DNA from: Actinomycetes bacterium
GTDB lineage: Bacteria > Actinomycetota > Thermoleophilia > RBG-16-64-13
Reading direction: 5' to 3'
Assembly (NCBI GenBank): GCA_024637035.1
Contig: JAGXFW010000023.1
Span: 217,139-281,138 of the forward strand
Length of the DNA: 64,000 nucleotides
Under the pieces are notes generated by a model that saw only the letters and a list, made by a program, of their open reading frames with translations, was not told where the DNA came from and did no database searches. Below are positions 5,417 to 45,628 of this stretch, one piece after another (positions within the stretch are counted from its first letter, which is position 1; every line of letters begins with the position of its first letter). Position numbers and translations under genes: made by a program.

Positions 5417-5590
5417 CATTGTTCCCTCCCAGTCCTGTTCGACCCACATCTGTCTCTGGGAGAAGCGCGACGGCAGATCCATCTGCTCCCTCTCCCCCTC
5501 GAGTGGCCGGGTCGTGCTCTCGGATCCCCGCGCCCGTTCCCCGGGTTCAGGGATGAGAACGAAAAAACCGACCCACAAAGAGTCTCCTCT

Positions 5591-5656
5591 TGGCAGCTCG
5601 GCCGTGTTCAAGCGGAACACCTACAGCCTGGCAGTCCCTTCCGCAGGGTAGCCTGT
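5591..5656 (-). promoter_or_regulatory. copy A of a conserved ~68-nt element, ~175 nt upstream of the 509-aa gene
   Basis: Shares tggcagctcggc ... gcggaa ... tcccttccgcagggtagcc with copy B at 6223..6290 (~80% identity; perfectly conserved 19-mer and 12-mer). Confidence 0.45.
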
Positions 5657-17489: not shown

Positions 17490-17876
17490 CTAGACCCGGC
17501 TTCGTCCCTCGATTTCGGCGACCTTCCGTTCGAGGTGCCTTCCGGCGGCGACCGCCCCGAACAGCAGCACGTGTTTCACCCCGAGAAGGGTCACCTGTCC
17601 GCGACCCGCGGCGTCCGACCATTCGTACCGGCGGAACGTAAGGGCACGAACCACCCCACCGCCTACGATCCACCACAGCGAGACCCGGCTCGCGACTCGT
17701 GCGGCCTCGAGGCCGGCCCTGGTCGCCTCGTCGACCGGCGCACCGTCCGCGCGGCTCCGGCGCAACACGCCCCACTGGAACGCGTTGGCCGCGACCCAGG
17801 TGCCGGAGGCGAGATCGTGCAGGAAGTTATTGAAGACGACCAAGATGCCGCGCTTCGTCGTCGGCGTTCGCGCCAT
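17490..17876 (-). CDS. hypothetical small membrane protein at 3' end of cytochrome cluster 1
   Basis: 128-aa ORF with 2-3 hydrophobic segments; no family recognised. Confidence 0.3.
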   Translation of the reverse strand: MARTPTTKRGILVVFNNFLHDLASGTWVAANAFQWGVLRRSRADGAPVDEATRAGLEAARVASRVSLWWIVGGGVVRALTFRRYEWSDAAGRGQVTLLGVKHVLLFGAVAAGRHLERKVAEIEGRSRV

Positions 17877-17888
17877 GGTCCGTTCCTC

Positions 17889-18710
17889 CTAGAACTGGTT
17901 GAAGTCGTGCACGGTCGGCACCAACCACTGTACCCCCCAGAACGAGAGGAACACGAACACAAGGCCGAGAACGGCCACCGCCGCCGACCGCCGCCCACGC
18001 CAGCCCGCGAACGTGCGCAGGTGCAGGTAGAGGGCGTACACGAGGAATGAGATCAACGACCACACCTCGACGGGGTCCCAGCTCCAGTAGCTGCCCCAGA
18101 GATCGTTGGCCCAGATGGCACCCGAGGCGATCATGACCGCCTCGAAGATGAACCCGGCCACCACCATGCGATACGAGAGGTCCTCGAGTGCGTCGCCTTC
18201 CGGCAGGCCGGCGCGCACCCGCACGGTCGCCCCCCAGCTCTCGCTCAGATAGATGGCACCGGCGCTGAAGGCCAGAACGAAGCACCCGAACGACAGGAAG
18301 GCGAACACCACGTGCACGGCGAGCCAGCCGCTGTCGTATGCGGCGGAAAGCGGCCCGATGGCTGTGGGCGACGTGATCCCGATGCCGAGCGCGAGGATCA
18401 CCGGCGGCATGGCTCCCACCATGAGCGGCCGCAGCCGCGGCGCAAGCAGCACCACACCCACCACCACGACCATAGCGACCCACGAGCCGCTCAGATTGAG
18501 TTCGTACCCATCCCCCACCGGCAGGTGCCCGGACAGGACCCACCGAGCTGCCACCGCCCCCGTGTTCGCGGCAAGACCCGCGGTCACCGCGGCAAGGCCC
18601 ACGCTCCGCCATACCGGTCGCTGGAACACCATGCCCAACAACGTGGCCGCGAAGGCGACCACGTACAGCCCCGTCGTGATCCAGAAGAGCCAGGCTTCGA
18701 TGGGTCTCAC
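17889..18710 (-). CDS. ccsA: System II cytochrome c biogenesis protein CcsA/ResC (heme-handling WWD protein), copy 1
   Basis: Trp-rich WWD motif WGSYWSWDPVEVWS, polytopic, 4-nt overlap with resB. Confidence 0.8.
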   Translation of the reverse strand: MRPIEAWLFWITTGLYVVAFAATLLGMVFQRPVWRSVGLAAVTAGLAANTGAVAARWVLSGHLPVGDGYELNLSGSWVAMVVVVGVVLLAPRLRPLMVGAMPPVILALGIGITSPTAIGPLSAAYDSGWLAVHVVFAFLSFGCFVLAFSAGAIYLSESWGATVRVRAGLPEGDALEDLSYRMVVAGFIFEAVMIASGAIWANDLWGSYWSWDPVEVWSLISFLVYALYLHLRTFAGWRGRRSAAVAVLGLVFVFLSFWGVQWLVPTVHDFNQF

Positions 18711-19879
18711 GCGTTCTCCTCATCACTTGGGGAGCGCCGCCCGCGCACCGCTGTCCAGCTCGCCGGGGCGTACCGTATCAGTAGGCCCAGCAGTCCGATG
18801 ACGAACCCAGCGTACACGACGAACCGACCCGAATCAGCCCTCACGCGTACGGCAGTCCAGCGCCGCAGGTCGCCGAAAGCGAAGTTGTAGCCTCCCACGG
18901 CGACCTCCGACCCGAGGACGGCTGTCCCCGATTCCACCACAGAGCCGTCTTCCCCGAGGAACTCCACCACTATGGCCGGATTCCGCGCCTCAGGCGACAC
19001 CGACACGGCAGCACCGTCGTGGAGCCGGAAGTCGGGCAGCAGTCGCAGCCGTACCGTACCGGGCAACCCCGGAGCCTCCACCACGTCCTCGTACGCACCT
19101 GCGTCCCCTCCGTGCACGGACATGAGCGCCACGTACGCGTCAACCAACACCTCGCCTGCAGGAGAGACCACTGTCAACAGCGGCGAGAAGCCCCAGTCGG
19201 CGTGCGTCAGCACCACGCCCTCGAGTCGCACGGGGCGATTGACTCCGAGAGACCGGGAGACGGTCTCTGCGCCAGGTTCCGCCACGGCCAGCACGCTCTC
19301 TACGGCGGTGGAGACGCCGCCGTCGCTCACCGGACGCGATGATTCGACACCCAACGCATATCCCGGGAGTGCGCCGTCCGCCCACACGCCGCGCCTCAGG
19401 TCCAGGTACTGTTCTTCCCGGGAGAGATCGATCACCTGGCCCTCGGTCGCCACGATCCGCCCATCGATGCTCGACCCCGCCGTCACGACCCCACCCGCCA
19501 GCAGCGCCAGCAGCCCAACGTGGAGCACGAGCGAGCCGCCCAATGCCGCCGCCGCACCACCCCGCGCCTTGCGCGCCAGGATCGTCCGCCGGGTAGTGCA
19601 CGCCACCATGTTCACCGCCAGAGCAGCCAGCAGCACCATGAACGGGATGGACGAGAACGCCTCGAACAGGCCGAGAGGCTCGGCCACGGCCGTCACAATG
19701 GGGTGATCGCTCCTCCACAGGTCGAGAGCGGAATCGCCGACGGTTCCCGCCTGCGGGAGCATGGAGCCCGCGACGCACAGCAAGGTGAAGGCCGCGACGA
19801 CCGCGACGGTGGTCCGCGTGGAATAGAGAGCCCGCACTAGCGGGGCGAACAGGCGCATGATTTCAGGCGACGACTCCAT
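18707..19879 (-). CDS. resB: System II cytochrome c biogenesis protein ResB/CcsB, copy 1
   Basis: Start at MESSPEIMRLF (GGTGGA Shine-Dalgarno). ResB topology: N-terminal TM pair, large periplasmic domain, C-terminal TM. Confidence 0.7.
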   Translation of the reverse strand: MESSPEIMRLFAPLVRALYSTRTTVAVVAAFTLLCVAGSMLPQAGTVGDSALDLWRSDHPIVTAVAEPLGLFEAFSSIPFMVLLAALAVNMVACTTRRTILARKARGGAAAALGGSLVLHVGLLALLAGGVVTAGSSIDGRIVATEGQVIDLSREEQYLDLRRGVWADGALPGYALGVESSRPVSDGGVSTAVESVLAVAEPGAETVSRSLGVNRPVRLEGVVLTHADWGFSPLLTVVSPAGEVLVDAYVALMSVHGGDAGAYEDVVEAPGLPGTVRLRLLPDFRLHDGAAVSVSPEARNPAIVVEFLGEDGSVVESGTAVLGSEVAVGGYNFAFGDLRRWTAVRVRADSGRFVVYAGFVIGLLGLLIRYAPASWTAVRGRRSPSDEENA

Positions 19880-19920
19880 CGGTCCACCGGCGGTCGCGGA
19901 CCGCTCGATCTTCCGGTAGC

Positions 19921-22900
19921 TTATGGGTACGTCCTGGGGCTGGCCAAATGGGCGCAGTCGCCCCCGTAGCAGTTCCCGGCCGTGGGATTGAGCCCGCCGA
20001 GCCACCCACCGTAGAGGAAGGCTTTCGTCGTGATACCAGGGGTCTGGGCACCCGTGCCCGCCGGCCATGTCCAGCTGCCGCCGTGGATGTTGCCCGGACT
20101 GCCGTTCGCCACCGTGGCGCCGTCGGATTCCACCAAGCCGGCGTGGCAGCCCCGACAGGCCATGGTATTGCCGCCGGAAAACACGTGCTGTCCGCGGCTG
20201 TGGTCAACAAAGCGAGAGCCGGTACCGTTCGTTTCGTATACGCTCAGCTTGTGGCAGCGAAGACATAGATCGCGCTGCCCGCCGTAGTTCGGAGATGCGA
20301 TCGTGCCCACATTGGTACGAAGCATGTATCGGTTCGTGTTGCCGTGCCCGGACCAAGCCTCGTGGCAGTCGAAGCAGGAGATCACGTTGTGTGTGTTCGC
20401 CGCCTGATTCCACGGGACCACCATGGTGATGACGTTGCCGTTCGTGGCCGTGGCCGTGGTGTACGGGTTCGTCCCCACACCGCGGACGGCATGGTGGAAG
20501 TTGTTCGTGGTGGCGAAGGCGCTGAAGATGTTGGGCACATCCCGCGTGTTGCTGCTGAACGGCCGCGCTGCCGTGCCGCCGGGTGAGACGCGGGCGCCCG
20601 CGCTGCTGGCGCCATCCGAATCGTGACACTTGAAGCACAGGTTGTTCTGCACGTTGGTGACCCAGGCTTCCAGAGTGTTCGAGGCGGTGTTGCGGGTGAA
20701 GGAAGTGACGGCGGTCGCGATGGCGGCGCCGGTGTCGGGATCGCGGAAGTTGATGGCGTTGTTCTTATGGTTCGCCGAGATGATGTTGCCCGTGGCCGGG
20801 TCGCCCTCCATGTGGCACACGCCGCAGTCCTTGTCGGTGACCGCACCGCCCATGACGTGGCGACCGGTCAGCGAGAACTCGCCCGTCATCGCGCGCCGGG
20901 TGGGCGCCCCGTCGGCGTTGTCCTGCGCGACCGCGTGACAGCCCACGCAGCTGCCGCCTCGGTTCGGGCGGTGCACGTTGTACCCGGTGGCGGCGGTCGG
21001 TGCCGCGTAGCTGTTGCCGTGACAGTCGTAGCAGCTCACCGTGGGCGTGACCCGGTTGGTCTCGCCGTGAGCGGTGATCCCGGTGATGAGCGAGAGCTTA
21101 TTGGCGGCCGTACGCCGATCGAGGCCCTCAATCGAGGTGAGTTCGCCCGCGGGGATGGTATTCGCAAGAGCGTCCCCGCTACCCGTCACTCGCTGCCAGG
21201 GCAGGTGGCACTTGAAGCAGAAGTTCACGACCCCAGCCGTGGTCGTGGTGTCGATGTTCGACCACTGCTCGTCGGAGATGAGCTTGGTGTTGGCCTGCGT
21301 GCCGTTGTTGCCCTTCGACCCGTGGGGATTGTGGCAGTCGTAGCAGGGGAGCGGCGCGCCCACGGGCAGGTTGCCGCCGGCAGTGAAGATGCGGTGGCCG
21401 CCGGTGTAGTCGGCGCCGGTAAGGCTGTAGTCGTACGAGACGTACTGGAGGATGTTCTTCGTCGACGGGCTGCCGTCATGACAGGTGATGCACAGCAGGG
21501 CGTACGTGCCGTTCTGGCGGTCGGACTGGGCGGTTGCTACGTCTGGGGTCGGCCGGTACGTAGCCACGAGCGCGTCGTAGGTGGCCGTGTTGCGGTGAGG
21601 GGCGTGGCAGTTGCGACAGTCACCAGAGGCGCGGCCCGAGGCCGGCCAGATGACGTTCACCGAAGTGGTCGGGTTGTGCGGGTTGAACGTGGTGTTGTTG
21701 TACGCGGTACTGCCGGGGTAGGTGCCCAGGGTGGGGTAGCCGTTGGCTGCCCGCGTGGGCCGCGCCGCGTTGATGCCGCCCGATGGATACGGGTAGGTCG
21801 GCACGGCCCAGCTGAACGCGTCGTTGTGACACGCCTGACACCACGTGTAGTTGTTGCCGGTCACGGCCGTGGCATTGATGGTGGGCTTGTAGAGTTTCGG
21901 CTTGCCCCCCGCGCCTGAGGCCGGGTAGTGGGCGCCGTGGCACGAGGAGCACCTGCTGGTCAGACCCGGCCCTGGGATCACAACTGAATCGTTCACCTGG
22001 TGGCCGCTCCCGGCGAGCAGGAAGACAGCCTTCATGTTGGTGGCCGCGCCGGTGCCGTCGTGGCACATGTAGCAGACGTCCGCTTCCTGCGACTGCGGGA
22101 AGATCTTGCCCCCGTACGTGGCGGCCGCGGCCGCTCCATGTGGTGAATGGCAGTTCCGGCAGAGGTTGGTCGCGTTCGAATAACCGCCGTGCGGCGTGAT
22201 GCCCGTGAGGGCGGTGGTGAAGCTGCGTGAGAAGGGCGCCCCGAGCGGGTTGCCCGCGAGATCGGCCGCCACGCCCGAGGTCCAGATGGTGTAGACGGTG
22301 TTCACGTCCATCATCTGATCGGGGTAGATGTATACCGTGGTGCGGTCGGCGGCCAGCACAACGCTCCGGATCGGCACCAGCGACGCACCGATGCGCAGCT
22401 GCACATAGTCATCGTCCGTCAGAGTGTTCGGGTCCATCGGTTCGCTGAAGACGACAGTGGCAAAGCTGTTCACCGGCACGCCGGTAGCTCCGCTGGCCGG
22501 TGTGGCGCCGGTGACCATGGGCGGCGTGACATCGGCCGCGGCTGTGGTCTGGAAATTGGCCACGCTTGTCGCCGCCAACGCGAGCCCCGCCGCGTTCTGC
22601 GCACCGGTGGTGACCCGGGTGAAGTAGCGGCGTCCGGTCAGGAGGGCGGCGGTCGGCAAGAAGGCGACGGTGCGCGTTGGGTCGTCGTAGAGGAGAGTGC
22701 CGGCGATCTGCGTGTCGACGGCTAGGTCGAATACCCCGTTGTTGTTGGTATCGAGCCAGAGCTGCACGTTGGCGCCGATGATGGTGGCCGGGTTCATGTT
22801 GTCCGAGAAGATGATATTGGGTGCCACGTTCGTCGGAATGCCCGTGGCCCCGTCGACCGGATTCCGCCCGGTGATGGTGGGTGGCGTGGTGTCGAGGGTG

Positions 22901-25011
22901 ATAGCGTCGGTGACCGAGCCGGTGGTGTTGCCGTGAGAATCACGGTATTGGGCGTAGACGGTCTTGGCGCCGTCGCCCGCGGTCAACGTCCAGGCTGCGC
23001 TCGCGCTATAGGCCTGCCAGCCGGCCCAAACGGCGCCATCGTTGCTGAAGCGCATCTCCATCGGGAGCGACCCATCGGTGACCGTGCTGGTGAGGGTGAC
23101 GCTGGTCGTCGTCGTGTACGCCGCGTTTGCGTTGACGACGAAGCCGGTCACGGTCGGTGGCCGGGTGTCCACGGTGATGGTGGGGTTACCCAGGGACAGC
23201 CCGGTGTTGGCGGCGCCGTCGGTGGCCCGCGCCACGATGGTGCGGGGCGGAGCGTTGTCTTCGCTGGGTAGCGTCCAGGTGTAGCTCCAGGTGACGGTGC
23301 CCGTGCCGGCGCCGGAGGTGCTCGTCGCAAGCGCCCAGGAGGTCCCGCCGTTCACCGACACCTCGACTTGGCTCACCACGACGTTGTCGGTGGCGCCCCC
23401 GGTGATGTTGTAGGTGACACCAGTCAGCACCGCGCCGTTCGCGGGCGCGGCCACCGTGGCGGCGGGCGGAACCGCGTCGGGGCCGGAAGACGTCGTGAAG
23501 CGCCACGTGTAGGCCGCGGCCAGAGGCAGCCCGGCGGCGTTCTGCACCGAGGTGGTCAGTCGGGCGATGTAGGGCGTGCTGGCGAGCAGGTCGATCGTGG
23601 GATCGAGCGTCGCCGTCTTGCTGCCCGCGTTGTAGGTGACCGTGCCGGCCACCTGTACGTCACCGGCGTCGATGACGCTGTTGCCGTTCACGTCGCGCCA
23701 GAGCTGGTAGTTCGTGGTGTTGATCGTGGCGACGTTCATGTCGTCGCTGAAGGTGGCCGTGATGTTCGCCGCCGGATCGACGCCTGTGGCGCCGTTCACC
23801 GGGATCGTAGCGGTGACGGTGGGCGGAGTCGCGTCGAGGATGATGGTGTCGTTCGTGGCGCTGACGTTCAGAGCTACGTCGCGGAACTCGGCGTACACGG
23901 TCTTCACGCCGTCGCCGGCGGTGAGTGTCCAGGCCTTGGTGGCCGCGTAGTTCTCCCACGCTGACCACACCGTGCCGTCGTTGCTGAAGCGCATCTGGAT
24001 GACCTGCCCCTGGGCGGTGCTGCCATCTGTGACGCTGTTGTTCAGGGTGACGGCGGTGGCGGTCGTGTACGCGGCGCCGCCCGCCACCGCGAAACTCGCC
24101 ACGTTGGGGGCCACCCTGTCCACCCACACCTGCCGACTGGCGGTAGGCACTTCGGTGTTGGGCACCGCGTCGCGGGCCCGCGACCAGATGGTGCGCGATA
24201 CGTAGTCGAGTACCGGAACGCTCCACGTCTGGCTCCAGGTGACCGTGGGCGTGCCGGAGCCGGAGGTGACGGTCGCGGCACTCCAGCTGGCTTGGTTGTC
24301 GGTGGAGACGTCCACTTGGCTGATGTTGCTGCCACCCGTGCTCACATCGGTGGCGCCACCGGTGATGTTGTAGGTGGCCGAGGAGATCACGAGGCCGTTG
24401 GCGGCGGGAGTCGAGATGGAAGAAGTGGGCGGCGTGACATCGGACGAGCCGGTGACGGTCACGACGAACGAGCCGCCGTTGCGCGCGCTCCAGTCGCCGT
24501 TCTTGCCCGACTTGCCATTGCCGGCTACTGCGGCGATCCACAGCCGATAGGTACCCGGCGTGGCCGGCGCCGTCCACGTGAAGTTGACGATGGCGCTGGC
24601 CAACAAGGCTGATTGCCGCAATTCGTTCGTGGTCAGTATCGTGATGTTCGGAGTGACGGAAGTAAGGGTTCCGACGCGGGTGCCGCCCGTCGAGGCGGAA
24701 TTGGTGAAGGCGAGATCGATGCCCCAATCGGCCAGGTCCGCGGGCCCCCCGGTGATAGTCACCTGGTAGGCGCCGAGTTGGTTCGTGTTGAGCGCGGTCG
24801 GCCCGGTGATGGAGAGCCCGGCCGTGCCGGATTCGTGGCAACCGCCGGCCCCGCACCCGAGGGCCGTGTCGTAGGCCGTGTAGCCCGTGGAGGATGCCCT
24901 GGCCGGCGCGTCGCCAAGGACCACGATCCATGCGGCCGCCGCGATCACCAGTAGCACGACCGCACCGGCGAGCGCCCAGCCGCCGCGACACGGGAATAAT
25001 CGCACCATCAC
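19921..25011 (-). CDS. giant multiheme c-type cytochrome (1696 aa) with N-terminal S-layer-type Ig-like repeats; 15 CxxCH + 1 CX4CH
   Basis: Signal/anchor MMVRLF...AVVLLVIAAAAWIVV. Repeated ~90-aa modules with TPPTVTATIPVNGATGV...FSDDM (SbsA/Big_5-type signature). C-terminal third carries CRNCH, CYMCH, CSSCH, CQACH, CRNCH, CITCH, CYDCH, CFKCH, CYDCH, CVGCH, CGVCH, CFKCH, CFDCH, CLRCH, CRGCH; N-terminal CGAGGCH. Confidence 0.85.
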   Translation of the reverse strand: MMVRLFPCRGGWALAGAVVLLVIAAAAWIVVLGDAPARASSTGYTAYDTALGCGAGGCHESGTAGLSITGPTALNTNQLGAYQVTITGGPADLADWGIDLAFTNSASTGGTRVGTLTSVTPNITILTTNELRQSALLASAIVNFTWTAPATPGTYRLWIAAVAGNGKSGKNGDWSARNGGSFVVTVTGSSDVTPPTSSISTPAANGLVISSATYNITGGATDVSTGGSNISQVDVSTDNQASWSAATVTSGSGTPTVTWSQTWSVPVLDYVSRTIWSRARDAVPNTEVPTASRQVWVDRVAPNVASFAVAGGAAYTTATAVTLNNSVTDGSTAQGQVIQMRFSNDGTVWSAWENYAATKAWTLTAGDGVKTVYAEFRDVALNVSATNDTIILDATPPTVTATIPVNGATGVDPAANITATFSDDMNVATINTTNYQLWRDVNGNSVIDAGDVQVAGTVTYNAGSKTATLDPTIDLLASTPYIARLTTSVQNAAGLPLAAAYTWRFTTSSGPDAVPPAATVAAPANGAVLTGVTYNITGGATDNVVVSQVEVSVNGGTSWALATSTSGAGTGTVTWSYTWTLPSEDNAPPRTIVARATDGAANTGLSLGNPTITVDTRPPTVTGFVVNANAAYTTTTSVTLTSTVTDGSLPMEMRFSNDGAVWAGWQAYSASAAWTLTAGDGAKTVYAQYRDSHGNTTGSVTDAITLDTTPPTITGRNPVDGATGIPTNVAPNIIFSDNMNPATIIGANVQLWLDTNNNGVFDLAVDTQIAGTLLYDDPTRTVAFLPTAALLTGRRYFTRVTTGAQNAAGLALAATSVANFQTTAAADVTPPMVTGATPASGATGVPVNSFATVVFSEPMDPNTLTDDDYVQLRIGASLVPIRSVVLAADRTTVYIYPDQMMDVNTVYTIWTSGVAADLAGNPLGAPFSRSFTTALTGITPHGGYSNATNLCRNCHSPHGAAAAATYGGKIFPQSQEADVCYMCHDGTGAATNMKAVFLLAGSGHQVNDSVVIPGPGLTSRCSSCHGAHYPASGAGGKPKLYKPTINATAVTGNNYTWCQACHNDAFSWAVPTYPYPSGGINAARPTRAANGYPTLGTYPGSTAYNNTTFNPHNPTTSVNVIWPASGRASGDCRNCHAPHRNTATYDALVATYRPTPDVATAQSDRQNGTYALLCITCHDGSPSTKNILQYVSYDYSLTGADYTGGHRIFTAGGNLPVGAPLPCYDCHNPHGSKGNNGTQANTKLISDEQWSNIDTTTTAGVVNFCFKCHLPWQRVTGSGDALANTIPAGELTSIEGLDRRTAANKLSLITGITAHGETNRVTPTVSCYDCHGNSYAAPTAATGYNVHRPNRGGSCVGCHAVAQDNADGAPTRRAMTGEFSLTGRHVMGGAVTDKDCGVCHMEGDPATGNIISANHKNNAINFRDPDTGAAIATAVTSFTRNTASNTLEAWVTNVQNNLCFKCHDSDGASSAGARVSPGGTAARPFSSNTRDVPNIFSAFATTNNFHHAVRGVGTNPYTTATATNGNVITMVVPWNQAANTHNVISCFDCHEAWSGHGNTNRYMLRTNVGTIASPNYGGQRDLCLRCHKLSVYETNGTGSRFVDHSRGQHVFSGGNTMACRGCHAGLVESDGATVANGSPGNIHGGSWTWPAGTGAQTPGITTKAFLYGGWLGGLNPTAGNCYGGDCAHLASPRTYP

Positions 25012-25913
25012 GACCCCGCCCCCGCGGCGCCGATCGCCTCGAGCTGTGCGGCAAACGCCGGGTCGTCGGGGCGAAGATCAGCGCCGCGCTCGAACGCCAC
25101 TCGCGCTGCCTGCACGTCGCCAGCCTGGAGCCGAGTGAGTCCAAGTTCGAAGAGGATGCCCGGTAGCGCCGCGTCGTCGGGCGGAAGGGCCGCGATCAAG
25201 GACTCCCACTCGACACCCGCGCGCTCGTACTCCCCGACCATGCGCAGAGTGCGCGCCAGTTCCAAGCGGATGGGGACGGAATCAACGTCGAGGGCCGCGG
25301 CAGCCTCGAGGCGCTCCGCCGCCGCCTCAAGGTCGCCCGCGCCCCGAAGAACCAGAGCCAACTGATACAGCGTCTCCGGGTCGGAGCCGTGCTCGGCGAG
25401 CAGGGTCTCGTATCGAGCGGCGGACGAATCGTAGTCTCCGCGCAGCCAACTCACTTGAGCGGCGGCCGCGGCGGCCTCGCGGTCGTCGGGGCGCGCCGTC
25501 AAATACTCTCCCAGCAGGCGCTCGGCCTCATCCAGGCGGCCCACCTCGTACGCCGCGAAGGCGTCGGCCCTGAGACCACCGGCAGTGGCGGGATCGGCCC
25601 CCGTCTCGGTGGCTGTGGAGGCGAGCCCGGGAGCGACAGCCTCCGTGCCCGCGGTGTCCGATTCACTCGCGCCAGAAGGCAGCAACCCAGCCGCCCACAG
25701 CGCGACAAGCCCCGCGACCACGACGGTCACGAGGCCCAGGTAGAGGAGGCCCCTCGGAAGCTTTGCGCTGTCAATCACAAGCTCTTCGAATCGTCTCCGT
25801 TGTCGGCCGGTGGGGGCTACCCCACCCGCACCACCGTGCTTCGCGCGATTGCGGCGCATTCCGCGGCCAGTATACCCAGACCCCGAGTAGGTCGCCACGG
25901 AGAATATCGGCAT
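25008..25913 (-). CDS. membrane-anchored TPR-repeat protein (cluster 1)
   Basis: One TM helix then TPR-like helical repeats; 4-nt overlap with the cytochrome gene. Confidence 0.55.
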   Translation of the reverse strand: MPIFSVATYSGSGYTGRGMRRNRAKHGGAGGVAPTGRQRRRFEELVIDSAKLPRGLLYLGLVTVVVAGLVALWAAGLLPSGASESDTAGTEAVAPGLASTATETGADPATAGGLRADAFAAYEVGRLDEAERLLGEYLTARPDDREAAAAAAQVSWLRGDYDSSAARYETLLAEHGSDPETLYQLALVLRGAGDLEAAAERLEAAAALDVDSVPIRLELARTLRMVGEYERAGVEWESLIAALPPDDAALPGILFELGLTRLQAGDVQAARVAFERGADLRPDDPAFAAQLEAIGAAGAGS

Positions 25914-25936: not shown

Positions 25937-27025
25937 TCAGTCGAAAGCGCGCACCAATGAGTAGTCCGTACGCCGTTGCGCCGGCACGAAGCCGGCGGCG
26001 CGGATCGCCCGCACGAGATCGTCCGCGCCCACGCTGAACGAAACTCCCGCAGCCGCCACCACGTTCTCTTCGATCATCGTGCTGCCCAGGTCGTTCGCGC
26101 CGAACAGTAGGGCTGTCTGTCCCACCTTGATCCCTTGGGTGACCCACGACGCCTGGATGTTGGCGACGTTGTCCAGATAGAGGCGAGAGACCGCCAGGGT
26201 CGTGAGGTAGTCGACCGCGGTGGCGGGCTCGACGGTACCTTCCAGGGCCGTGTTCCCCTCCTGGAACGTCCAGGGGATGAATGCACGGAAGCCGCCCGTC
26301 TCGTCCTGAAGGTCGCGGATGCGACGCAGGTGCTCCACCCGCTCCTCGAGCGTCTCCACATTGCCGAACATCATGGTGGCAGTGGTGCTCATGCCGAGCA
26401 GGTGGGCCTCCCGCATGACGTCGAGCCACGGTTCGGTGCGGGCCTTCTTGGGCGCCAGCTGAAGGCGCACCCTATCGACGAGGATCTCGGCCCCGCCGCC
26501 CGGCAGCGAGTCAAGGCCTGCGGCCCGAAGTCGCTGCAGGGTGTGCCGCACGGTCAACCCGCTCAAGGAGGCGATGTGGAGCACCTCCGGCGGCGACAGC
26601 GAGTGGATCGTGATGTCGAAGCGCCCCTTGATCGACGTGAAGAGGTCTTCGTAGTAGGTGATGTCGAGCTCCGGGTGGTGACCACCCTGCATGAGGACGG
26701 CAGTGCCGCCCAAGTCGAGGGTCTCCTGTATCTTGGCGAAGATCTCGTCCTTGCTCAGAACGTAGGCACCCTCGGTGTCGGGTGAGCGGTAGAAGGCGCA
26801 GAAGTCGCAGCCCGTGACGCACACGTTGCTGTAGTTGATGTTCCGGTCGATGATGAAGGTGGCACGATCGCCGGGCACCTGGGTCCGCCGGCGCCCGTCG
26901 GCGAGCCGTCCCAGCGTCAACAAGTCGCGGGAGCGCAGGAGCGCGGCCGCGTCAGCGTCGCCCAGACGCTCACCCGCCTCGATCCCGCGCACCAGCGCCG
27001 CATCGATCGCCCCACTGTAGCTCAC
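25937..27025 (-). CDS. radical SAM enzyme of the MqnC/MqnE family (futalosine menaquinone pathway)
   Basis: CVTGCDFCAF CxxxCxxC, MqnC/MqnE-like length and motifs; GTG start at 27025 overlapping the mqnA stop (GTGA). Confidence 0.7.
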   Translation of the reverse strand: MSYSGAIDAALVRGIEAGERLGDADAAALLRSRDLLTLGRLADGRRRTQVPGDRATFIIDRNINYSNVCVTGCDFCAFYRSPDTEGAYVLSKDEIFAKIQETLDLGGTAVLMQGGHHPELDITYYEDLFTSIKGRFDITIHSLSPPEVLHIASLSGLTVRHTLQRLRAAGLDSLPGGGAEILVDRVRLQLAPKKARTEPWLDVMREAHLLGMSTTATMMFGNVETLEERVEHLRRIRDLQDETGGFRAFIPWTFQEGNTALEGTVEPATAVDYLTTLAVSRLYLDNVANIQASWVTQGIKVGQTALLFGANDLGSTMIEENVVAAAGVSFSVGADDLVRAIRAAGFVPAQRRTDYSLVRAFD

Positions 27026-27870
27026 GAAGCGTCCTCCACGCCGAAGAACGCGAGTTCCGGTGCCTCCACCAGCTCTCCGGCTTCGAGGGCCAACTCGTAG
27101 AAGCGCTCGAGCCCACGGCGGTACTCCGTGTCGAACCCATACTTCAGCACCTCGAAGTACCGGTCGAGGCAGGGCTTGTCGAACCTCCACAGGCCTAGGG
27201 CCGAATCGACCACCTCGCCCTTCGCCCCACGGCTTGCTTCGATGGATGCCACCAACTCCCCCTCGACGGCGATCAACTCCGCCTCATGCTTGGCAAAGTA
27301 CTCCCTCCGTGTCGCCCAGACGGCGAACACCATGGGAAGACCGGTCCACTCACGCCACAGGCGACCGAGATCGTGGCACGTCGTACCCCCGGTGGGGAAG
27401 TACATGGCTTGGAGGCCGTCGTCGCCGATGAGAAGCACCGCGTCACTATCGACCAGCGCCTCCTCGGGAGTCGTCGTCAATTCCTCGTAGAGCGGTTCCA
27501 GGCCGTACTTCAGCTTCAGCATGGTCTTCAGGAGGGCTACCGAGGTCGCGCTCTTGGGCGTCAGCGCCACCCTGGTCAACTCCTCGAGCGGCGTGCGGGC
27601 GACCAGCTGGATGCTGTCCACCGCGCCCCGCGAAGAGATGGAGAGCCGGCGGCTGAGCAGGAGCTGGCCGTGGTTGCGCGCGTAGGCGATGGAGCTGATG
27701 GGCCCGAAGTCGATGGTGCCCGAAACCAGCATGCGGTTGAGGTCGGTGGGTACCCCACGCACCAACTCGAACTCGGTAGGGCTCGACACGCCCGCGGCGG
27801 CGCGGCGCTCCAACCCGTGGTAGAGCGGGAAACAGTTCAGAAACTCGATATGACCAACTCGGACGGTCAC
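27022..27870 (-). CDS. mqnA: chorismate dehydratase MqnA (futalosine pathway)
   Basis: ~283 aa after trimming the ORF to the GTG at 27870 (VTVRVGHIEFLNCFPLYHGL, MqnA-like start). GTGA overlap with the upstream radical SAM gene. Confidence 0.65.
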   Translation of the reverse strand: MTVRVGHIEFLNCFPLYHGLERRAAAGVSSPTEFELVRGVPTDLNRMLVSGTIDFGPISSIAYARNHGQLLLSRRLSISSRGAVDSIQLVARTPLEELTRVALTPKSATSVALLKTMLKLKYGLEPLYEELTTTPEEALVDSDAVLLIGDDGLQAMYFPTGGTTCHDLGRLWREWTGLPMVFAVWATRREYFAKHEAELIAVEGELVASIEASRGAKGEVVDSALGLWRFDKPCLDRYFEVLKYGFDTEYRRGLERFYELALEAGELVEAPELAFFGVEDAS

Positions 27871-28988
27871 GAGTCGTACCGTCTCACGACCTGATACAGC
27901 GTGTCGCGCTCTACGGCCGCGCGCCCCGTGTCCTGGATGATGCGCACCAACTCGTTCCGCGAGACCGCCTGCCCCGCTTCCGAGCCCGCCGCCTTGGTGA
28001 TCGTCTCCTCCACGATGGTGCCGTCGACATCGTCCACGCCGAAGAAGAGGCTGATCTGGGCAAGCTTGAGCCCGATCATCACCCAGTACGCCTTGATGTG
28101 GTCGAAATTGTCCAGCATGAGGCGGGCCACCGCCAGCATGCGCAGGTCGTCTACCCCGGTGGTGGGAGCCAGGTCGGAGAGCTTGGTGTTGCGCGGGTGG
28201 AAGGCCAGGGGGATGAACGCCTGGAACCCACCGGTCTCGTCCTGGGCGTCGCGAAGGCGCAGTAGGTGGTCGATGCGTTCCTCGAGCGTCTCGACGTGGC
28301 CGTAGAGCATGGTGGCGTTGGTGCGAAGGCCGCATCGGTGGGCGAGCTTGTGCACGTCGAGCCACTTCTCGCCCGAGATCTTCTTCGCGCACACCTGATC
28401 ACGCACGCGGCGCGCGAACACTTCGGCGCCGCCACCGGGGAGGCTGCCCAGGCCAGCGGCTTTGAGGTCCAGAAGCACCTCTTCCTCGGTCATGCCGCTC
28501 TGTCCGGCGAAGTGCACGATCTCGGAGGCCGTGAACGCGGTGAGGTGCACCTCGGGAGCCAAGGCGTGGAGTTCGGCGATCATCTCGCGGATCGAGGAGT
28601 ACGGCAGATCGGGGTGCTCGCCTCCCACGATGTGCAGCTCGGTGATGCTCTCGACAAGCGAGCTGCGGGCCCGGTCGAGCACCTCCTCGAGACTCATCGT
28701 GTAGGCACCCTCTTCGCCGTCGTCGCGAGAGAAGGCGCAGAAGTCGCACCGGTTCTTGCACACGTTGGTGTGATTGATGTGCCGGTTGTTGATGAAGAAC
28801 ACGTCGTCGCCCACCTTGCGCCGACGGGCCTCGTCAGCCAGCCGACCGACCCGGAGCAGATCGGGGGTGGTGAGGAGGGTGAGGCCGTCGGCGGCGGAGA
28901 GGCGCTCTCCGGCCCCGATCTTGGCCTCGATGGTGGCCATGGAGTCGAGTGATGAGGGTGGTGTCATGGCAGGGGCAGAGTCTACCAC
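27867..28988 (-). CDS. radical SAM enzyme of the MqnE/MqnC family (aminofutalosine synthase / cyclic dehydroxyfutalosine synthase)
   Basis: CKNRCDFCAF CxxxCxxC. Paralog of 25937..27025 (FINNRHINHTNVC vs FIIDRNINYSNVC). Confidence 0.7.
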   Translation of the reverse strand: MVDSAPAMTPPSSLDSMATIEAKIGAGERLSAADGLTLLTTPDLLRVGRLADEARRRKVGDDVFFINNRHINHTNVCKNRCDFCAFSRDDGEEGAYTMSLEEVLDRARSSLVESITELHIVGGEHPDLPYSSIREMIAELHALAPEVHLTAFTASEIVHFAGQSGMTEEEVLLDLKAAGLGSLPGGGAEVFARRVRDQVCAKKISGEKWLDVHKLAHRCGLRTNATMLYGHVETLEERIDHLLRLRDAQDETGGFQAFIPLAFHPRNTKLSDLAPTTGVDDLRMLAVARLMLDNFDHIKAYWVMIGLKLAQISLFFGVDDVDGTIVEETITKAAGSEAGQAVSRNELVRIIQDTGRAAVERDTLYQVVRRYDS

Positions 28989-30782: not shown

Positions 30783-31991
30783 CTACGACACGGCCCACCA
30801 CGGGCGCACCCGGTGACCACCACGGTCATACGAGTCATCCCCTCCGTAGGCCAAGACCCCACCCCCATCCCCCGACAAGCCCGTGTAGTAGTCGAGCCCG
30901 CGGAACGCGTCGCTCGCGATGGTCTCCCCCGCTTTGACTTCCACGGCAACGCGGTTCAGCCCGAGATCCACCACGAAGTCGACTTCGCGGCCGTGGCTGT
31001 CCCTCCAGAAGTAGAGGGGCGCTCGCTCGCCATGATGAAGGAAGACCTTTCGCAGTTCGCTGTACACCAACGTCTCGACGATCGCCCCACGCAGTGGGTG
31101 GCGGTGTATCTCGTCAGGTCCACGCACTCCGAGGAGGTGGCACAGCAACCCTGGATCGAGGAAGAACATCTTCGGAGTCTTCACGAGCCGCTTCGAGAAG
31201 TTAGCGTGGTGCGGCTGTACGAGATCGAGCACGTAGCCCGCGCGCAATACCGACAGCCACCGCTTGGCCGTGGTGTGCGTGACGCCGGCCTCAGAGCCCA
31301 ACGATGAGAGATTCACCAACTGCCCGGAGCGGGCCGCGCAGAGCCCGAGGAAACGAGTGAACGAATCGAGGTCACCCACTCCGCTCAGGCTTCGCACGTC
31401 GCGCTCCACGTACGTACGCACGTATCCGTCGAGCCACGCGGCCGGATCGAGGCCTTGATCGTGGATGCGCGGAAAGAGACCGGAGAACAGGACCTCGTCG
31501 AGACTGAACGGCGGTCCGGGCGAAACCGGCGGGCGGTCGTCCCCTCTTGGTCCAAACAGCTGAACGGGAGACAGTGCCGGTCGACGCGCGAGTTCGGCGA
31601 TCGAAAAGGGCATAAGTTCGAGGATCGCCACTCGCCCAGCAAGTGTCTGTCCCACGTGCTGGGACAGCAGAAGCTGTTCGGATCCGGTGAGGATCACCGG
31701 CCCCGATCTCTTGTCATCGAGGAAGCCCTGGAGGTACGAGAGAAGGTCCGGGGTACGTTGCACCTCGTCGAGCACTACGCCCGGTGCCCCTTCGAGGCGG
31801 CGCAAGAACCCGCGCGGGTCTTCCCGGGCTTCTTCTCGGTTCTGCAGGTCCTCGAGGGATCGGTAGTGGAAGCCGGGGAACGTGGCGCGAGCGAGCGTCG
31901 TCTTGCCCGACTGGCGGGGGCCGGTGAGAAGCACGGCCGGGAAGCCAGACGCCAACTCCTCGAGCCGCGGTGTCAGGGTGCGCGGGATCAT
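30783..31991 (-). CDS. AAA-family ATPase with DUF4143-type C-terminal domain
   Basis: Walker A GPRQSGKTT; start at MIPRTL (ATG 31989-31991), whereas the ORF track starts at an upstream TTG. Confidence 0.65.
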   Translation of the reverse strand: MIPRTLTPRLEELASGFPAVLLTGPRQSGKTTLARATFPGFHYRSLEDLQNREEAREDPRGFLRRLEGAPGVVLDEVQRTPDLLSYLQGFLDDKRSGPVILTGSEQLLLSQHVGQTLAGRVAILELMPFSIAELARRPALSPVQLFGPRGDDRPPVSPGPPFSLDEVLFSGLFPRIHDQGLDPAAWLDGYVRTYVERDVRSLSGVGDLDSFTRFLGLCAARSGQLVNLSSLGSEAGVTHTTAKRWLSVLRAGYVLDLVQPHHANFSKRLVKTPKMFFLDPGLLCHLLGVRGPDEIHRHPLRGAIVETLVYSELRKVFLHHGERAPLYFWRDSHGREVDFVVDLGLNRVAVEVKAGETIASDAFRGLDYYTGLSGDGGGVLAYGGDDSYDRGGHRVRPWWAVS

Positions 31992-32069
31992 GGGTCCATC
32001 GTACTCGTGCGTTCGAACTGTGTCAATTGAACATGAGAAGTTCAATCATCACACATCGACCTCGTGGCG

Positions 32070-32780
32070 CTACACCGAAGCGTGGTGCAGGGCGATGATG
32101 CTCCCGGCCAGGATCTCGTATCTCGGGTTCACCAACCCGGCCGTGCGCATGACCTCGCGCAGCGCGTCCGGGTCGGGAAAGCGGCGCACGGACGCGGGCA
32201 GGTAGCTGTACGCGAAGTCGTCGCCGGCAGTGACGCGCCCCAGCAGCGGGACGACACCATCGAACCAGAGGCCGAAGAACTCTCGGAACCCGATGATCTG
32301 CGGCCGGGTGATCTCGAGGCACACCACACGGCCACCCGGACGGCACACGCGCCCCATCTCCGAGAAGGCCCGTTCGATGTCGGGCACGTTCCGTATGCCG
32401 AATCCCACGGTGCAGGCGTCGAACTCGCCGTCGGCGTAAGGGAGGTCGAGAAGGTCGCCGCGCACGAAGTCCACCCAGAGTTGGTTGCGTCCGCTCTTCT
32501 CGCGGGCAACGGCCAGCATCTCGTCGGAGAAGTCGAGACCCACCACACGCCCGCGCGGCCCCACCGCGCGGCGCAGCGCGAACGAGAAGTCACCGGTGCC
32601 GCATGCCACGTCGAGAGCGGAGTCACCGGGTCCCACCCCCGCCAGCAGTACCCCGAGTTCGCGCCACCTGTGATGCAGGCCCGCCGTCATCAAGGAGTTC
32701 AGCAGATCGTAGCGACCGGCGATCGAGTCGAACATCGCCTCGATACGACGTGGCTCCGGGGTGGCGTCGACCGGCGTCAT
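32070..32780 (-). CDS. menG: demethylmenaquinone methyltransferase (UbiE/MenG family)
   Basis: FDSIAGRYDLLNSLMTAGLHHRWRE and DVACGTGD SAM motif; start trimmed to MTPVDATPEPRRIEAMF. Confidence 0.75.
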   Translation of the reverse strand: MTPVDATPEPRRIEAMFDSIAGRYDLLNSLMTAGLHHRWRELGVLLAGVGPGDSALDVACGTGDFSFALRRAVGPRGRVVGLDFSDEMLAVAREKSGRNQLWVDFVRGDLLDLPYADGEFDACTVGFGIRNVPDIERAFSEMGRVCRPGGRVVCLEITRPQIIGFREFFGLWFDGVVPLLGRVTAGDDFAYSYLPASVRRFPDPDALREVMRTAGLVNPRYEILAGSIIALHHASV

Positions 32781-32886
32781 CGAGCGGCCCCGCCGCCGAC
32801 CCAGCGCCACGGGCCGTCCGGGCCCCCGAGAAGACGCGTCCGGCAGCGGCTGTCCCATCGCCCTGGTCCCACAGCGTCACGGCGGA

Positions 32887-33795
32887 TCACGCCAGCACCA
32901 CCGCCGCCGTCGCGAAGACGAAGAACGCCACAGACAAGGTGCTGTTCACTCCCATGAAAGCCAGCCCCACCTTGGCGAGATCGGCGTTTCGCATGACCCA
33001 GTTCTCGTAGAGCAGAAGAGCCCCGCAGAAAGCGACGCCCAAGTAGTACACCAGCCCGACACCCGAGAGCGATCCCGCGAGGGACAAGAGGGCAACCGCC
33101 GCAACATGCAGAGCCCGGGTCGACCACAACCCCGCCTGCTGGCCCAGGTCGGCGGGGATCGAGTGCAGCCCCTGCTCCCGATCGAACTGCACGTCCATGA
33201 AGGCGTAGATGACGTCGAACCCGGCGATCCACGTCGCCACCGCGGCCCCGAGGACGAATGGCTCCCAGGTCACCTCACCGGTCACGGCCACCCAGGCCCC
33301 CACCGGCCCGATTCCGATCGTCGCCCCGAGGAACAGATGGCTGAGCCACGACCACCGCTTCACCAACGGATACACCACGAACATGGCCACGGGGATCGGC
33401 CACAGGTAGCGGGTGACCACCGGCAGATTGAAGGTCGCGATCACCAGCACAGCCAGCGAGACCACGCTGAAGACCCAGGCCTCGCTGTTCGAGATACGGC
33501 CCGCGGGCAATTCCCGGATCGCGGTGCGTGGGTTCAACGCGTCGATGCGCGCGTCCAGGAGCCGGTTCAGAGCCATAGCCAGACTCCGCGCCGAGACCAT
33601 GGCCACGGTGATCCAGAACATGGTCCAGAAGCCGGGGATCCGGACTTCAGCCAAGAAGGCCGCCGAGTATGCGAAAGGGAGGGCGAAGATGGTGTGCTCG
33701 AACTTCACCAACCGCCCGAAGACGAGCACGTACTCGAGCGCGGAGCCGAGGCGGCTCTCGCCGCGCGGCTCCGGCGGCGCCGCTGTGTCGGTCAC
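32887..33795 (-). CDS. UbiA-family prenyltransferase (MqnP-like, menaquinone side-chain attachment)
   Basis: ~9 TM helices, Asp-rich UbiA motifs (NRLLDARIDALNPRT; FDVIYAFMDVQFD). Confidence 0.7.
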   Translation of the reverse strand: MTDTAAPPEPRGESRLGSALEYVLVFGRLVKFEHTIFALPFAYSAAFLAEVRIPGFWTMFWITVAMVSARSLAMALNRLLDARIDALNPRTAIRELPAGRISNSEAWVFSVVSLAVLVIATFNLPVVTRYLWPIPVAMFVVYPLVKRWSWLSHLFLGATIGIGPVGAWVAVTGEVTWEPFVLGAAVATWIAGFDVIYAFMDVQFDREQGLHSIPADLGQQAGLWSTRALHVAAVALLSLAGSLSGVGLVYYLGVAFCGALLLYENWVMRNADLAKVGLAFMGVNSTLSVAFFVFATAAVVLA

Positions 33796-33796
33796 G

Positions 33797-35269
33797 CTAG
33801 CGACCCGTCCGGCCCGACGGGTCGCCGAGTCTGAGGTCGCCGAGCCCGAGGTCGGCCCACATGGCGTCCACCTTGGCGACCACGTCGGCGCTCATGGCGA
33901 TGTCGGGCGGCCACTCACGCGTGTGGCCCTCGGCCGCCGTCTTGCGGGTGGCGTCGATGCCCACCTTGCCGCCCCAGAAAGCGGTGGGCGAGCTGTGATC
34001 GAGAGCATCCAGCGGACCCTCGGCGATCACCATGTCGCGCTTCGGGTCCACGTTGTTGAACACGCGCCACGCCACCTGCCCATAGTCGTGCACGTCGACG
34101 TCGGCGTCCACCACGATGACGAACTTTGTGAACTGCAGTTGCCCGGTGCCCCACACAGCGTGCATGATCTTGCGCGCATGCATGGGGTACGACTTGCGCA
34201 GCGAGAGGATCGCGCAGTTGTGGAACACGCCCTCCATCGGCAGGTCCATATCGACCACCTCGGGCAGGGTGAGCCGCAGGAGTGGCAGGAAGAGCTGCTC
34301 GGTCGCCTTGGCGATGAAGCAGTCTTCCATGGGCGGCGCGCCCACGATGGTCGTGGAATAGATGGGGTCGGTGCGGTGGGTGAGCGCGGTCACGTGGAAC
34401 ACGGGGTACTCGTCGGCCAACGAGTAGTAGCCGGTGTGGTCGCCGAACGGGCCCTCGACACGCCGCTCGTCGGGGTCGACGTAGCCTTCGAGCACGATCT
34501 CGGAATGGGCCGGCACCTCTAGGTCGACGCTCACGCACTTCACCATCTCCACCGGCTCGCCCCGAAGGAAGCCAGCGAACATCATCTCGTCGATCATGCC
34601 CGGCAGTGGAGCGGTGGCCGCATACGTGACCGCGGGATCGGTGCCGATGGCCACCGCCACCTCCATGCGGCCCCCGGCCTCACGGTAGTGCTCGGCCGCG
34701 TCCTTGTGCAGATGCCAGTGCATGCCGGTGGTGTTCCGGTCGTACACCTGCAGGCGATACATGCCGGTGTTGCGCACACCCCTGCGGGGGTCGCGCGTGT
34801 ACACAAGCGGGAGGGTGATGAAGCGCCCTCCGTCGAGCGGCCAGCACTTCAGAACCGGCAGGATGCCGAGGTCCACGTCGTCGCCGCGCATGACCACGTC
34901 CTGGCAGACGCCCTTCTTCACCAGCTTCGGAGCAAAGTTCGCCAAGTCCTTCAGGCGACCGAGCGCCTTCACCTTCTCGAGCATACCGCCTGGCATCTCG
35001 AGATCGAAGAGATCGAGCACCCGCTGCCCCAGTGCCTCATACGACGGGGTGCGGAGAGCGAGTTGGGTGCGTTCGTGGCTGGCGAACTGGTTGATGAGCA
35101 CGGGCATGGTGGAACCCGTGACGTTCCGGAAGAGCAGGGCCGGGCCGCCGGCCTTCACCACGCGGTCGGCGATCTCCGCAATCTCGAGCACGGGATCTAC
35201 CGGATGGTCGACAACGGCGAGGTCGCCGCGCTCGCGCAGCGACCTGATGAAGTCACGGAGGTCTTTCAT
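33797..35269 (-). CDS. UbiD-family decarboxylase (MqnL-like)
   Basis: 490 aa, UbiD-family pattern throughout, e.g. VNQFASHERTQLAL and GPFGDHTGYYS. Confidence 0.8.
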   Translation of the reverse strand: MKDLRDFIRSLRERGDLAVVDHPVDPVLEIAEIADRVVKAGGPALLFRNVTGSTMPVLINQFASHERTQLALRTPSYEALGQRVLDLFDLEMPGGMLEKVKALGRLKDLANFAPKLVKKGVCQDVVMRGDDVDLGILPVLKCWPLDGGRFITLPLVYTRDPRRGVRNTGMYRLQVYDRNTTGMHWHLHKDAAEHYREAGGRMEVAVAIGTDPAVTYAATAPLPGMIDEMMFAGFLRGEPVEMVKCVSVDLEVPAHSEIVLEGYVDPDERRVEGPFGDHTGYYSLADEYPVFHVTALTHRTDPIYSTTIVGAPPMEDCFIAKATEQLFLPLLRLTLPEVVDMDLPMEGVFHNCAILSLRKSYPMHARKIMHAVWGTGQLQFTKFVIVVDADVDVHDYGQVAWRVFNNVDPKRDMVIAEGPLDALDHSSPTAFWGGKVGIDATRKTAAEGHTREWPPDIAMSADVVAKVDAMWADLGLGDLRLGDPSGRTGR

Positions 35270-40035: not shown

Positions 40036-40126
40036 GTCGAGGCCTGAGCGAGCCCAGGTGGGCCGCACCAAGGCCAAGGTGCTAAAGTTCAACCCCGGAA
40101 CCCCCAGTGCCGACAGTAGGGATGGC

Positions 40127-42772: not shown

Positions 42773-42780
42773 GCCGCGCC

Positions 42781-45583: not shown

Positions 45584-45628
45584 GGCGCCGCGATTCTACC
45601 AGAGCGCCACAGTCGGCACGCCGGCAGC

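Follow-up and report, generated by a model that had tools for sequence, protein, structure and literature searches.

A putative operon for making and maturing a giant multiheme cytochrome in an uncultured Thermoleophilia-like actinobacterium

How electrons pass across the thick walls of monoderm high-GC bacteria is poorly understood, and the few systems that have been studied biochemically come from Firmicutes. Here we ask what is encoded at positions 17490 to 25913 of a 64,000-nucleotide stretch of DNA (the window) from an uncultured actinobacterium (contig JAGXFW010000023.1, assembly GCA_024637035.1). A first interpretation made without database searches, here called the sequence-only reading, had proposed that this locus encodes a giant S-layer-type multiheme cytochrome (MHC) together with its own tetratricopeptide repeat (TPR) partner and dedicated heme-attachment proteins, as a self-contained module for extracellular electron transfer (EET). 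With moderate confidence, we interpret the locus as a genuine operon of a Thermoleophilia-like actinobacterium that would make and mature a secreted cell-envelope MHC for electron transfer.

Five co-directional and intact open reading frames (ORFs) on the minus strand fill positions 17490 to 25913 exactly, in agreement with the sequence-only reading. In gene order, they encode a TPR protein of 301 amino acids (25008-25913; Pfam TPR_19, TPR_14 and TPR_16), the giant multiheme c-type cytochrome, designated MHC1 (19921-25011; 1696 amino acids from a GTG start, 1695 in the database gene call), a ResB/CcsB-like subunit of a System II cytochrome c synthase (18707-19879; 390 amino acids; Pfam PF05140, E = 3.4e-24), a CcsA/ResC-type heme-handling subunit (17889-18710; 273 amino acids; PF01578, E = 7.8e-34), and a protein of 128 amino acids from an unnamed conserved family, referred to below as the three-helix protein (17490-17876). 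Not all of these genes are joined by 4-nt overlaps, as had been stated, since only two of the four junctions are of this kind, namely, TPR/MHC1 (25008-25011) and ResB/CcsA (18707-18710). The MHC1 stop codon is separated by 41 nt from the ResB start, an ATG at 19879 that matches independent gene calls (390 amino acids in L001), the mechanically called ResB ORF of 453 amino acids being too long; the gap between CcsA and the three-helix gene is 12 nt, and no gap between operon genes exceeds 41 nt.

The futalosine-pathway menaquinone genes mqnE (27867-28988), mqnA (about 27022-27900) and mqnC (25937-27190) lie directly upstream on the same minus strand, as had been noticed before, with only 23 nt between mqnC and the TPR gene. 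Their assignment agrees with family models (MqnE, TIGR03700, 496.5 bits with a cutoff of 434.6; MqnC, TIGR03699, 481.7 bits with a cutoff of 428.1; MqnA, PF02621, 215 bits). At the other end, a convergent gene resembling phosphoenolpyruvate/pyruvate dikinases ends 25 nt past the three-helix gene. Because a search of the operon region found no sigma-70-like promoter and the number of terminator-like sites in the operon did not exceed that expected from shuffled sequence, a single transcript running from mqnE, or from the TPR gene, through the three-helix gene is plausible.

MHC1 begins with a hydrophobic secretion signal (residues 5-39, ending ARA/SS) and contains exactly 15 CxxCH sites, all in its C-terminal part and spanning residues 951 to 1623; both features had been recognized from the sequence. 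The 15-heme domain (residues 931-1696; 19924-22221, minus strand) holds 35 histidines, sufficient for bis-His ligation of all 15 hemes. With a secretion signal, multiple CxxCH sites and enough distal histidines, the protein qualifies as a multiheme c-type cytochrome. Pfam models Paired_CXXCH_1 and Cytochrome_C7 score above cutoff, MtrC/MtrF models also match, and the profile matches liken the heme domain to wires of the MtrA/MtrC/DmsE type. MHC1 is not an outer-surface decaheme cytochrome of the MtrC/OmcA kind, that is, a lipoprotein of four domains, two of them pentaheme. At its C terminus, the sequence CYGGDCAH (residues 1681-1688, within window positions 19921-19980) represents a conserved CYGGxC(x)H motif in which the two cysteines are nearly invariant over 53 homologs; the ortholog at locus L011 reads CYGGQCH, a heme-type Cx4CH motif.

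The N-terminal half is free of canonical heme sites. It consists of a choice-of-anchor V domain (residues 33-186; 24454-24915, minus strand), matched by NCBIfam NF041895 over residues 33 to 174 with 61.6 bits (cutoff, 42), and of a stalk of seven Ig-like beta-sandwich domains (residues 187-930; 22222-24453, minus strand). The single CGAGGCH, a Cx4CH motif, does not lie among the C-terminal 700 residues where it had first been placed but at residues 53 to 59 (24835-24855), within the choice-of-anchor V domain, and all four full-length orthologs have retained a C(x4-5)CH motif in this N-terminal domain. The stalk domains follow the order A1 (Big_7/Mo-co-dimer-like), B1, C1 (Big_5), A2, B2, C2 (Big_5) and C3 (Big_5), an architecture derived from pairwise comparison of domain pieces (A1/A2, 48% identity; B1/B2, 59%; C1/C2, 49%; C2/C3, 47%); when the N-terminal region was compared with itself by BLAST, no off-diagonal matches appeared. 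The A-B-C triplet is an old segmental duplication. Pfam recognizes three Big_5, one Big_7 and one Mo-co_dimer in the stalk, and the signature P-V-x-G-A-T-G-V...F-S-(D/E)-x-M is restricted to the three C-type domains, so that the roughly ten repeats carrying an SbsA/Big_5 signature that had been counted earlier are reduced to seven Ig-like domains, three of which are Big_5 domains with the signature.

Does this stalk make MHC1 an S-layer protein, as the sequence-only reading had it? A true S-layer cytochrome would have its Ig region in a paracrystalline lattice and the heme domain outermost, as proposed for MHC-A/B of anaerobic methanotrophic (ANME) archaea. Big_5 was indeed originally defined in the S-layer protein SbsA, and MHC1 is very large, acidic, rich in threonine (13.6%), alanine (13.0%) and glycine (10.3%), and devoid of any other recognizable anchor. 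However, Big_5 is a generic bacterial Ig-like domain that a homolog search finds in hundreds of unrelated surface proteins, and the Pfam scan of MHC1, while confirming the expected Big_5/Ig and cytochrome c matches, detected no SLH domain (PF00395), no DUF1608 and no other S-layer or cell-wall-binding domain. Searches of PDB sequences with the heme-domain profile and the Ig region returned nothing usable, and no S-layer protein was among the matches. In addition, relatives whose heme domains are 50 to 88% identical to that of MHC1 range from 762 to 1715 amino acids, with stalks that vary widely and in some are almost free of Ig-like domains, which is not expected of a lattice-forming unit. We therefore consider an S-layer cytochrome very improbable.

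The amino acid composition also bears on an inverted GC and AT skew, relative to neighboring DNA, at both giant MHC genes of the window (20000-24000 and 46000-50000; the second gene is described below). The skew fits the Thr/Ala/Gly/Asn-rich composition of giant MHCs and thus need not mean foreign origin.

The two heme-attachment genes are not pseudogenes, a prospect that would have counted against the proposal. The CcsA ORF is intact and retains the WWD motif (WGSYWSWDPVE, residues 205-215). In a phmmer alignment with the Helicobacter hepaticus CcsBA (7S9Y), H133, H229 and H268 stand opposite H761, H858 and H897; these equivalents of P-His1, TM-His2 and P-His2 are kept in all 21 locus homologs. 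The protein scores 170.3 bits with the equivalog model TIGR03144, under the cutoff of 187.6, and is a divergent but apparently functional member of its family. ResB is equally intact and matches PF05140 with 85.9 bits (cutoff, 24.6), and hydropathy places its transmembrane (TM) helices at residues ~23-139 and 351-374, the expected topology with a large external loop; no match to ResB was found among NCBIfam models or in a PDB sequence search. A ResA candidate was not detected in the window by a motif scan for thioredoxin-like WCxxC, which is weak evidence, and CcdA was not searched for.

The remaining two operon products are candidate accessory factors. The TPR protein has a basic N terminus, one TM helix (residues ~52-83), a Ser/Thr/Ala-rich low-complexity linker and repeats (residues ~115-295) predicted to lie outside the membrane; against PDB sequences it matched only generic or designed TPRs, and its match to Pfam TPR_CcmH_CycH was below cutoff. 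The three-helix protein has no Pfam or NCBIfam match. An exhaustive hidden Markov model search among 1.84 billion representative proteins defined a family of 257 clusters, almost all 113 to 140 amino acids long and stand-alone, with rare fusions to extracytoplasmic modules (PKD/NHL, SurA-like peptidyl-prolyl isomerase, PsbP-like). Its motifs are NNxxHD, WIxxGGxxR, YEW and KH, the invariant positions being N, H and D in helix 1, G..R after helix 2, the YEW loop and K-H in helix 3. An AlphaFold2 model consists of three long helices (pLDDT 82); a fold search with this model retrieved generic helical bundles only, and a likeness to CopD was sub-threshold. Among the 12 genome loci with the gene, it lies downstream of CcsA in 11, while in L031 it follows the MHC and CcsA was not detected. 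In L047, the three-helix gene comes directly after CcsA, and the two genes overlap. Of all the observations made here, this close association with CcsA is the most original.

The TPR and three-helix proteins may handle or tether the apoprotein or help the synthase. A more specific proposal is that ResB, CcsA and the three-helix protein, joined by the TPR protein where an Ig stalk is present, constitute a hitherto unrecognized four-component variant of the System II synthase, specialized for very large MHCs of Actinomycetota, with the three-helix protein as a novel subunit for heme handling or tethering. We regard this as unlikely. If it were true, the TPR protein would take the apocytochrome-chaperone role that CcmI and NrfG have in System I.

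The gene set is conserved beyond the window. MHC1 has an identical counterpart (P0001) in the NCBI, JGI and Logan data, and proteins with 71% identity along the full length come from metagenome-assembled genomes (MAGs); one shorter close relative is labelled Thermoleophilia. The order mqnE-mqnA-mqnC, TPR (where present), MHC, ResB, CcsA and three-helix protein is kept in L002, L004 and L009, and one genome has the conserved order without the TPR gene and without the N-terminal half of the MHC. A heme-domain profile, run against 185,579 species genomes, matched 38 loci, all in MAGs or draft genomes and many of them cut by contig ends. Most are labelled Actinomycetota (Thermoleophilia, Coriobacteriia and Anaerosomatales, including HGW-Actinobacteria-1 and the biocathode bacterium Coriobacteriaceae sp. 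EMTCatB1), and four are labelled "Eubacteriales". CcsA was encoded on the same strand within 10 kb in 16 of the 38 loci, a three-helix homolog in 12 and a TPR gene in about 9.

In a profile search of 5.8 billion proteins, the heme-domain family comprised over 200 clusters, whose lengths run from ~380 to above 1700 amino acids and some of which come from Zixibacteria and Planctomycetes. Homologs bearing Ig-like domains come mostly from Thermoleophilia, and their stalk length is highly variable. The largest relatives are ORFs of up to 4118 amino acids, and 75 and 74 CxxCH motifs were counted in L044 and L018, respectively. L002, L007, L009, L012, L013 and L042 each have a homologous TPR gene immediately before the MHC. 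Such a TPR gene accompanies mainly MHCs with a long N-terminal non-heme extension: it was found in 5 of 10 loci with an extension of at least 300 amino acids and in 2 of about 30 loci with a short extension. In Coriobacteriia, the cassette is compact: a 19-heme MHC of about 1060 amino acids is followed by ResB, CcsA and the three-helix protein. In EMTCatB1, its genes overlap by 4 nt and lie between relA and hisS/aspS.

The conserved cassette does not have a uniform ancestry. The mqn, TPR, MHC and three-helix genes of the window are closest to L009 (75 to 90% amino acid identity), whereas the nearest counterparts of ResB and CcsA are those of L002 (62.5 and 83.9%), identity to the L009 proteins being only 45.5 and 65.9%. 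This discordance suggests an exchange between lineages that involved the resB-ccsA pair as one unit, giving the operon a mosaic ancestry.

We then considered whether ResB and CcsA are a private heme lyase, specialized for MHC1 together with the three-helix and TPR proteins by its Cx4CH site or by its extreme size. The conservation of the N-terminal Cx4-5CH in all four full-length orthologs, the sub-cutoff score of CcsA with the equivalog model, and the behavior of the resB-ccsA pair as an exchangeable unit would fit such specialization. So would a second module of the window, at 41687-51756 on the minus strand. This strongly diverged copy of the TPR-MHC-ResB-CcsA set provides a second CcsA adjoining a giant MHC. 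It encodes a TPR protein (50869-51756), MHC2 (45629-50692; 1687 amino acids, with 12 CxxCH sites and Ig-like domains), ResB (43593-45035), CcsA2 (42781-43596) and a 394-amino-acid ORF with ResB-like topology (41687-42871); a three-helix homolog is missing. Identity is only ~22 to 24% between MHC1 and MHC2 and 32% between CcsA2 and the CcsA of the operon, and on these grounds a recent duplication giving rise to the two modules was rejected. In CcsA2, the "GH.P..YE" loop (GTIAVYNQLE) is without its histidine, which is invariant elsewhere; the protein keeps the other three histidines and has the WWD motif IGGVYWAWD in place of the usual WGxYWxWD.

The distribution of ccs genes among the cytochromes nevertheless speaks against specialization for odd motifs. 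Cassette-linked MHCs of nine loci (L004, L014, L016, L020, L024, L030, L038, L039 and L040) have canonical CxxCH sites only, and the Cx4CH-rich homologs of L005 and L008 have no ccs neighbors. Within the window, MHC2, whose 12 heme sites are canonical and which carries no odd motif, has its own ResB and CcsA, whereas MHC3, a protein of 1169 amino acids with 30 CxxCH and 12 Cx3-4CH motifs (54866-58375, plus strand), has no adjacent ccs genes. Because the adjacency of ccs genes does not track non-canonical motifs, a lyase for the Cx4CH motif was rejected as the main explanation. The window also holds two CcsA genes for five MHCs (MHC1, MHC2, MHC3 and two tandem NapC/NirT-like 12-heme proteins), of which three are without ccs genes of their own, and one three-helix gene; some of these MHCs must thus be matured by a non-adjacent synthase, unless further copies exist outside the window. 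A private lyase is therefore doubtful; dedication might still have another basis, for example size or co-translational coupling.

Wolinella succinogenes provides the models of dedicated lyases, namely, NrfI for CXXCK and CcsA1 for CX15CH. Like the window, it has several CcsA-type paralogs (NrfI, CcsA1 and CcsA2, reviewed in PMC12285233), some of them beside the substrate cytochrome. In contrast to the situation described here, specificity is tied there to CXXCK and CX15CH, and the lyases are CcsB-CcsA fusions, while the subunits are separate in the window operon. A further precedent that would favor a private lyase is the ANME paralog CcmF2, found only beside giant S-layer MHC fusions and adjoining MHC-B (Chadwick et al. 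2022, PMC9012536). There, too, a giant MHC with non-heme surface domains adjoins a paralogous heme-lyase gene presumed to mature it. The ANME system is, however, archaeal, uses System I (CcmF) rather than System II, has a true S-layer domain (DUF1608) with a C-terminal TM anchor, and showed no detectable sequence relationship to the window operon. Conceptually, CcmF2 is the nearest precedent for a giant surface MHC that has a lyase paralog to itself. Overall, the ResB-CcsA pair of the operon is most reasonably regarded as one among several System II paralogs, situated beside a very heme-demanding substrate and probably co-expressed with it.

Nor is the operon self-contained, as had been supposed. 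A cytochrome cluster at 54866-63941, mostly on the plus strand, contains MHC3, an NHL-repeat protein (58625-59641, minus strand), two tandem 12-heme NapC/NirT-like membrane cytochromes (59838-60842 and 60856-61926, plus strand) and a membrane protein combining Wzy_C (O-antigen-ligase-like) and TPR (61821-63941, plus strand). The NapC/NirT-type proteins are likely quinol dehydrogenases. As they (59838-61926) are encoded about 35 kb away, and three of the MHCs lack ccs genes, the operon is part of a larger menaquinone and cytochrome island. The remaining menaquinone genes, encoding MenG/UbiE, an MqnP-like prenyltransferase and an SCO4490-type decarboxylase, are found at 32070-35269, separated from mqnE by ~3 kb that includes an AAA_14/DUF4143 ATPase gene (30783-32045); in L002, the two sets of menaquinone genes are contiguous.

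From these components, the following route can be proposed. The MHC1 apoprotein would be exported by Sec, and the System II synthase formed by ResB and CcsA would export heme and attach it at the 15 CxxCH sites, perhaps loading the N-terminal Cx4CH as well. The mature protein would be a 15-heme bis-His wire fused to about eight beta-sandwich domains, of which the choice-of-anchor V domain and the seven Ig-like domains would position or attach MHC1 in the cell wall or at the surface. Electrons of the menaquinone pool may then reach MHC1 by way of the NapC/NirT-type 12-heme cytochromes, which are membrane-anchored and encoded in the same island. Outside the cytoplasm, MHC1 would transfer electrons to insoluble or extracellular partners or receive electrons from them.

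Several points weigh against this interpretation. No LPXTG motif, SLH domain, lipobox or C-terminal TM helix that could serve as an anchor was found in MHC1. The stalk is heme-free, and MHC1 on its own does not obviously form a conduit from membrane to surface. Confidence in the structural model of the heme domain is low (pLDDT 62), and Anaerosoma tenue, which has a homologous cluster, does not reduce Fe(III) (Khomyakova et al. 2022, PMC9686372). MHC1 might instead serve in the wall zone as an electron store or wire for a soluble substrate, or act itself as a redox enzyme, the Ig domains being used for adhesion only. The behavior of A. tenue and the lack of any evident porin or anchor logic would agree with such a role. 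On the other hand, MHC1 contains no catalytic-type motif (CXXCK), the operon encodes no partner enzyme, the heme domain is like the MtrA/MtrC/DmsE-type wires, and relatives are found in Actinobacteria that reduce Fe(III) or are associated with electrodes; we hold a function outside EET to be quite improbable and retain the secreted envelope cytochrome for electron transfer as our interpretation.

Those relatives also show how much of the system had precedents. Anaerosomatales isolates have 17 to 18 MHCs, with MHC clusters that include cytochrome c biogenesis genes, and Parvivirga hydrogeniphila is an obligate Fe(III) reducer (PMC9686372). The MHC genes of EMTCatB1, as a group, are highly expressed on working cathodes (Kobayashi et al. 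2021, PMC7943316), and a Coriobacteriales genome with 37 MHCs was described from an anode (Arbour et al. 2020). As in the window, the clusters of Anaerosomatales and EMTCatB1 have a homologous heme domain (32 to 35% identity) with ResB and CcsA immediately downstream; the three-helix protein follows in EMTCatB1 and many Coriobacteriia MAGs but not in A. tenue. Their MHCs differ in having 19 hemes, ~1050 to 1170 amino acids and almost no N-terminal extension, and they are without the choice-of-anchor V domain, the adjacent TPR gene and mqn genes directly upstream. The A. tenue cluster consists of the MHC homolog, Wzy_C-TPR, TPR, NHL, two more MHCs, ResB, CcsA, a B12 radical SAM gene, which comes after the ResB-CcsA pair, and UbiE; a near-identical gene set is dispersed over the 64-kb window.

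Closer in taxonomy, a Solirubrobacterales MAG from Trout Bog has clustered MHCs, the largest with 15 heme sites, that were predicted to serve cell-wall EET (He et al. 2019, PMC6344600). Solirubrobacterales is an order of Thermoleophilia, the class of the closest named relatives of the window. The cluster was published as gene IDs and heme counts, with Ig domains, TPR and ccs genes unmentioned (PMC6344600); going by this published description only, its MHCs are plausibly of the same family as MHC1. The monoderms Thermincola potens and Carboxydothermus ferrireducens are similar in having secreted or wall MHCs (OcwA, SmhA-C and OmhA) that receive menaquinone electrons via membrane-bound cytochromes. 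These cytochromes are smaller, have 6 to 11 hemes and belong to other families, the PDB searches having returned no match to OcwA, and a linkage to ResB/CcsA is unmentioned in PMC7829351.

The claim that the architecture is undescribed in high-GC bacteria thus stands only in part, since MHC clusters with biogenesis genes (PMC9686372) and a 15-heme cell-wall cluster (PMC6344600) were known, while the combination of Ig stalk, TPR and three-helix protein is in neither. Given the precedents in Anaerosomatales, EMTCatB1, Solirubrobacterales and ANME archaea, the general idea was already known, and the operon is a lineage-specific elaboration of a cassette present in other iron-reducing or electrode-associated Actinobacteria rather than a new kind of system. 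What is new is the conserved three-helix protein and the association of TPR protein and Ig stalk. To our knowledge, neither the Thermoleophilia architecture nor the ResB-CcsA-three-helix cassette has been described.

Two further genes of the window were noted. A BchE-like B12-binding radical SAM gene (40058-41590, plus strand) lies beside the second module and matches TIGR02026 with 422 bits, below cutoff; in L047, a close homolog (1364-2812; E = 2e-178) overlaps the CcsA/three-helix genes that it follows. A 577-amino-acid protein encoded at 3887-5620 on the minus strand matches DUF2193 with 746 bits, a domain labelled "uncharacterized protein conserved in archaea", here in an actinobacterial context.

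The operon does not overturn current models. The MHC-ResB-CcsA-three-helix cassette offers marker genes for the prediction of EET in Actinomycetota, and the three-helix and TPR proteins are two candidate maturation factors for heterologous System II expression. The relatives of MHC1 form a natural series in which the same heme wire carries stalks of different length, from ~0 to 8 Ig-like domains, and which would allow a test of how the thickness of the wall is spanned. Finally, the cassette ties uncultured Thermoleophilia to the cultured Fe(III)-reducing Anaerosomatales and to a Coriobacteriaceae strain that dominates biocathodes.

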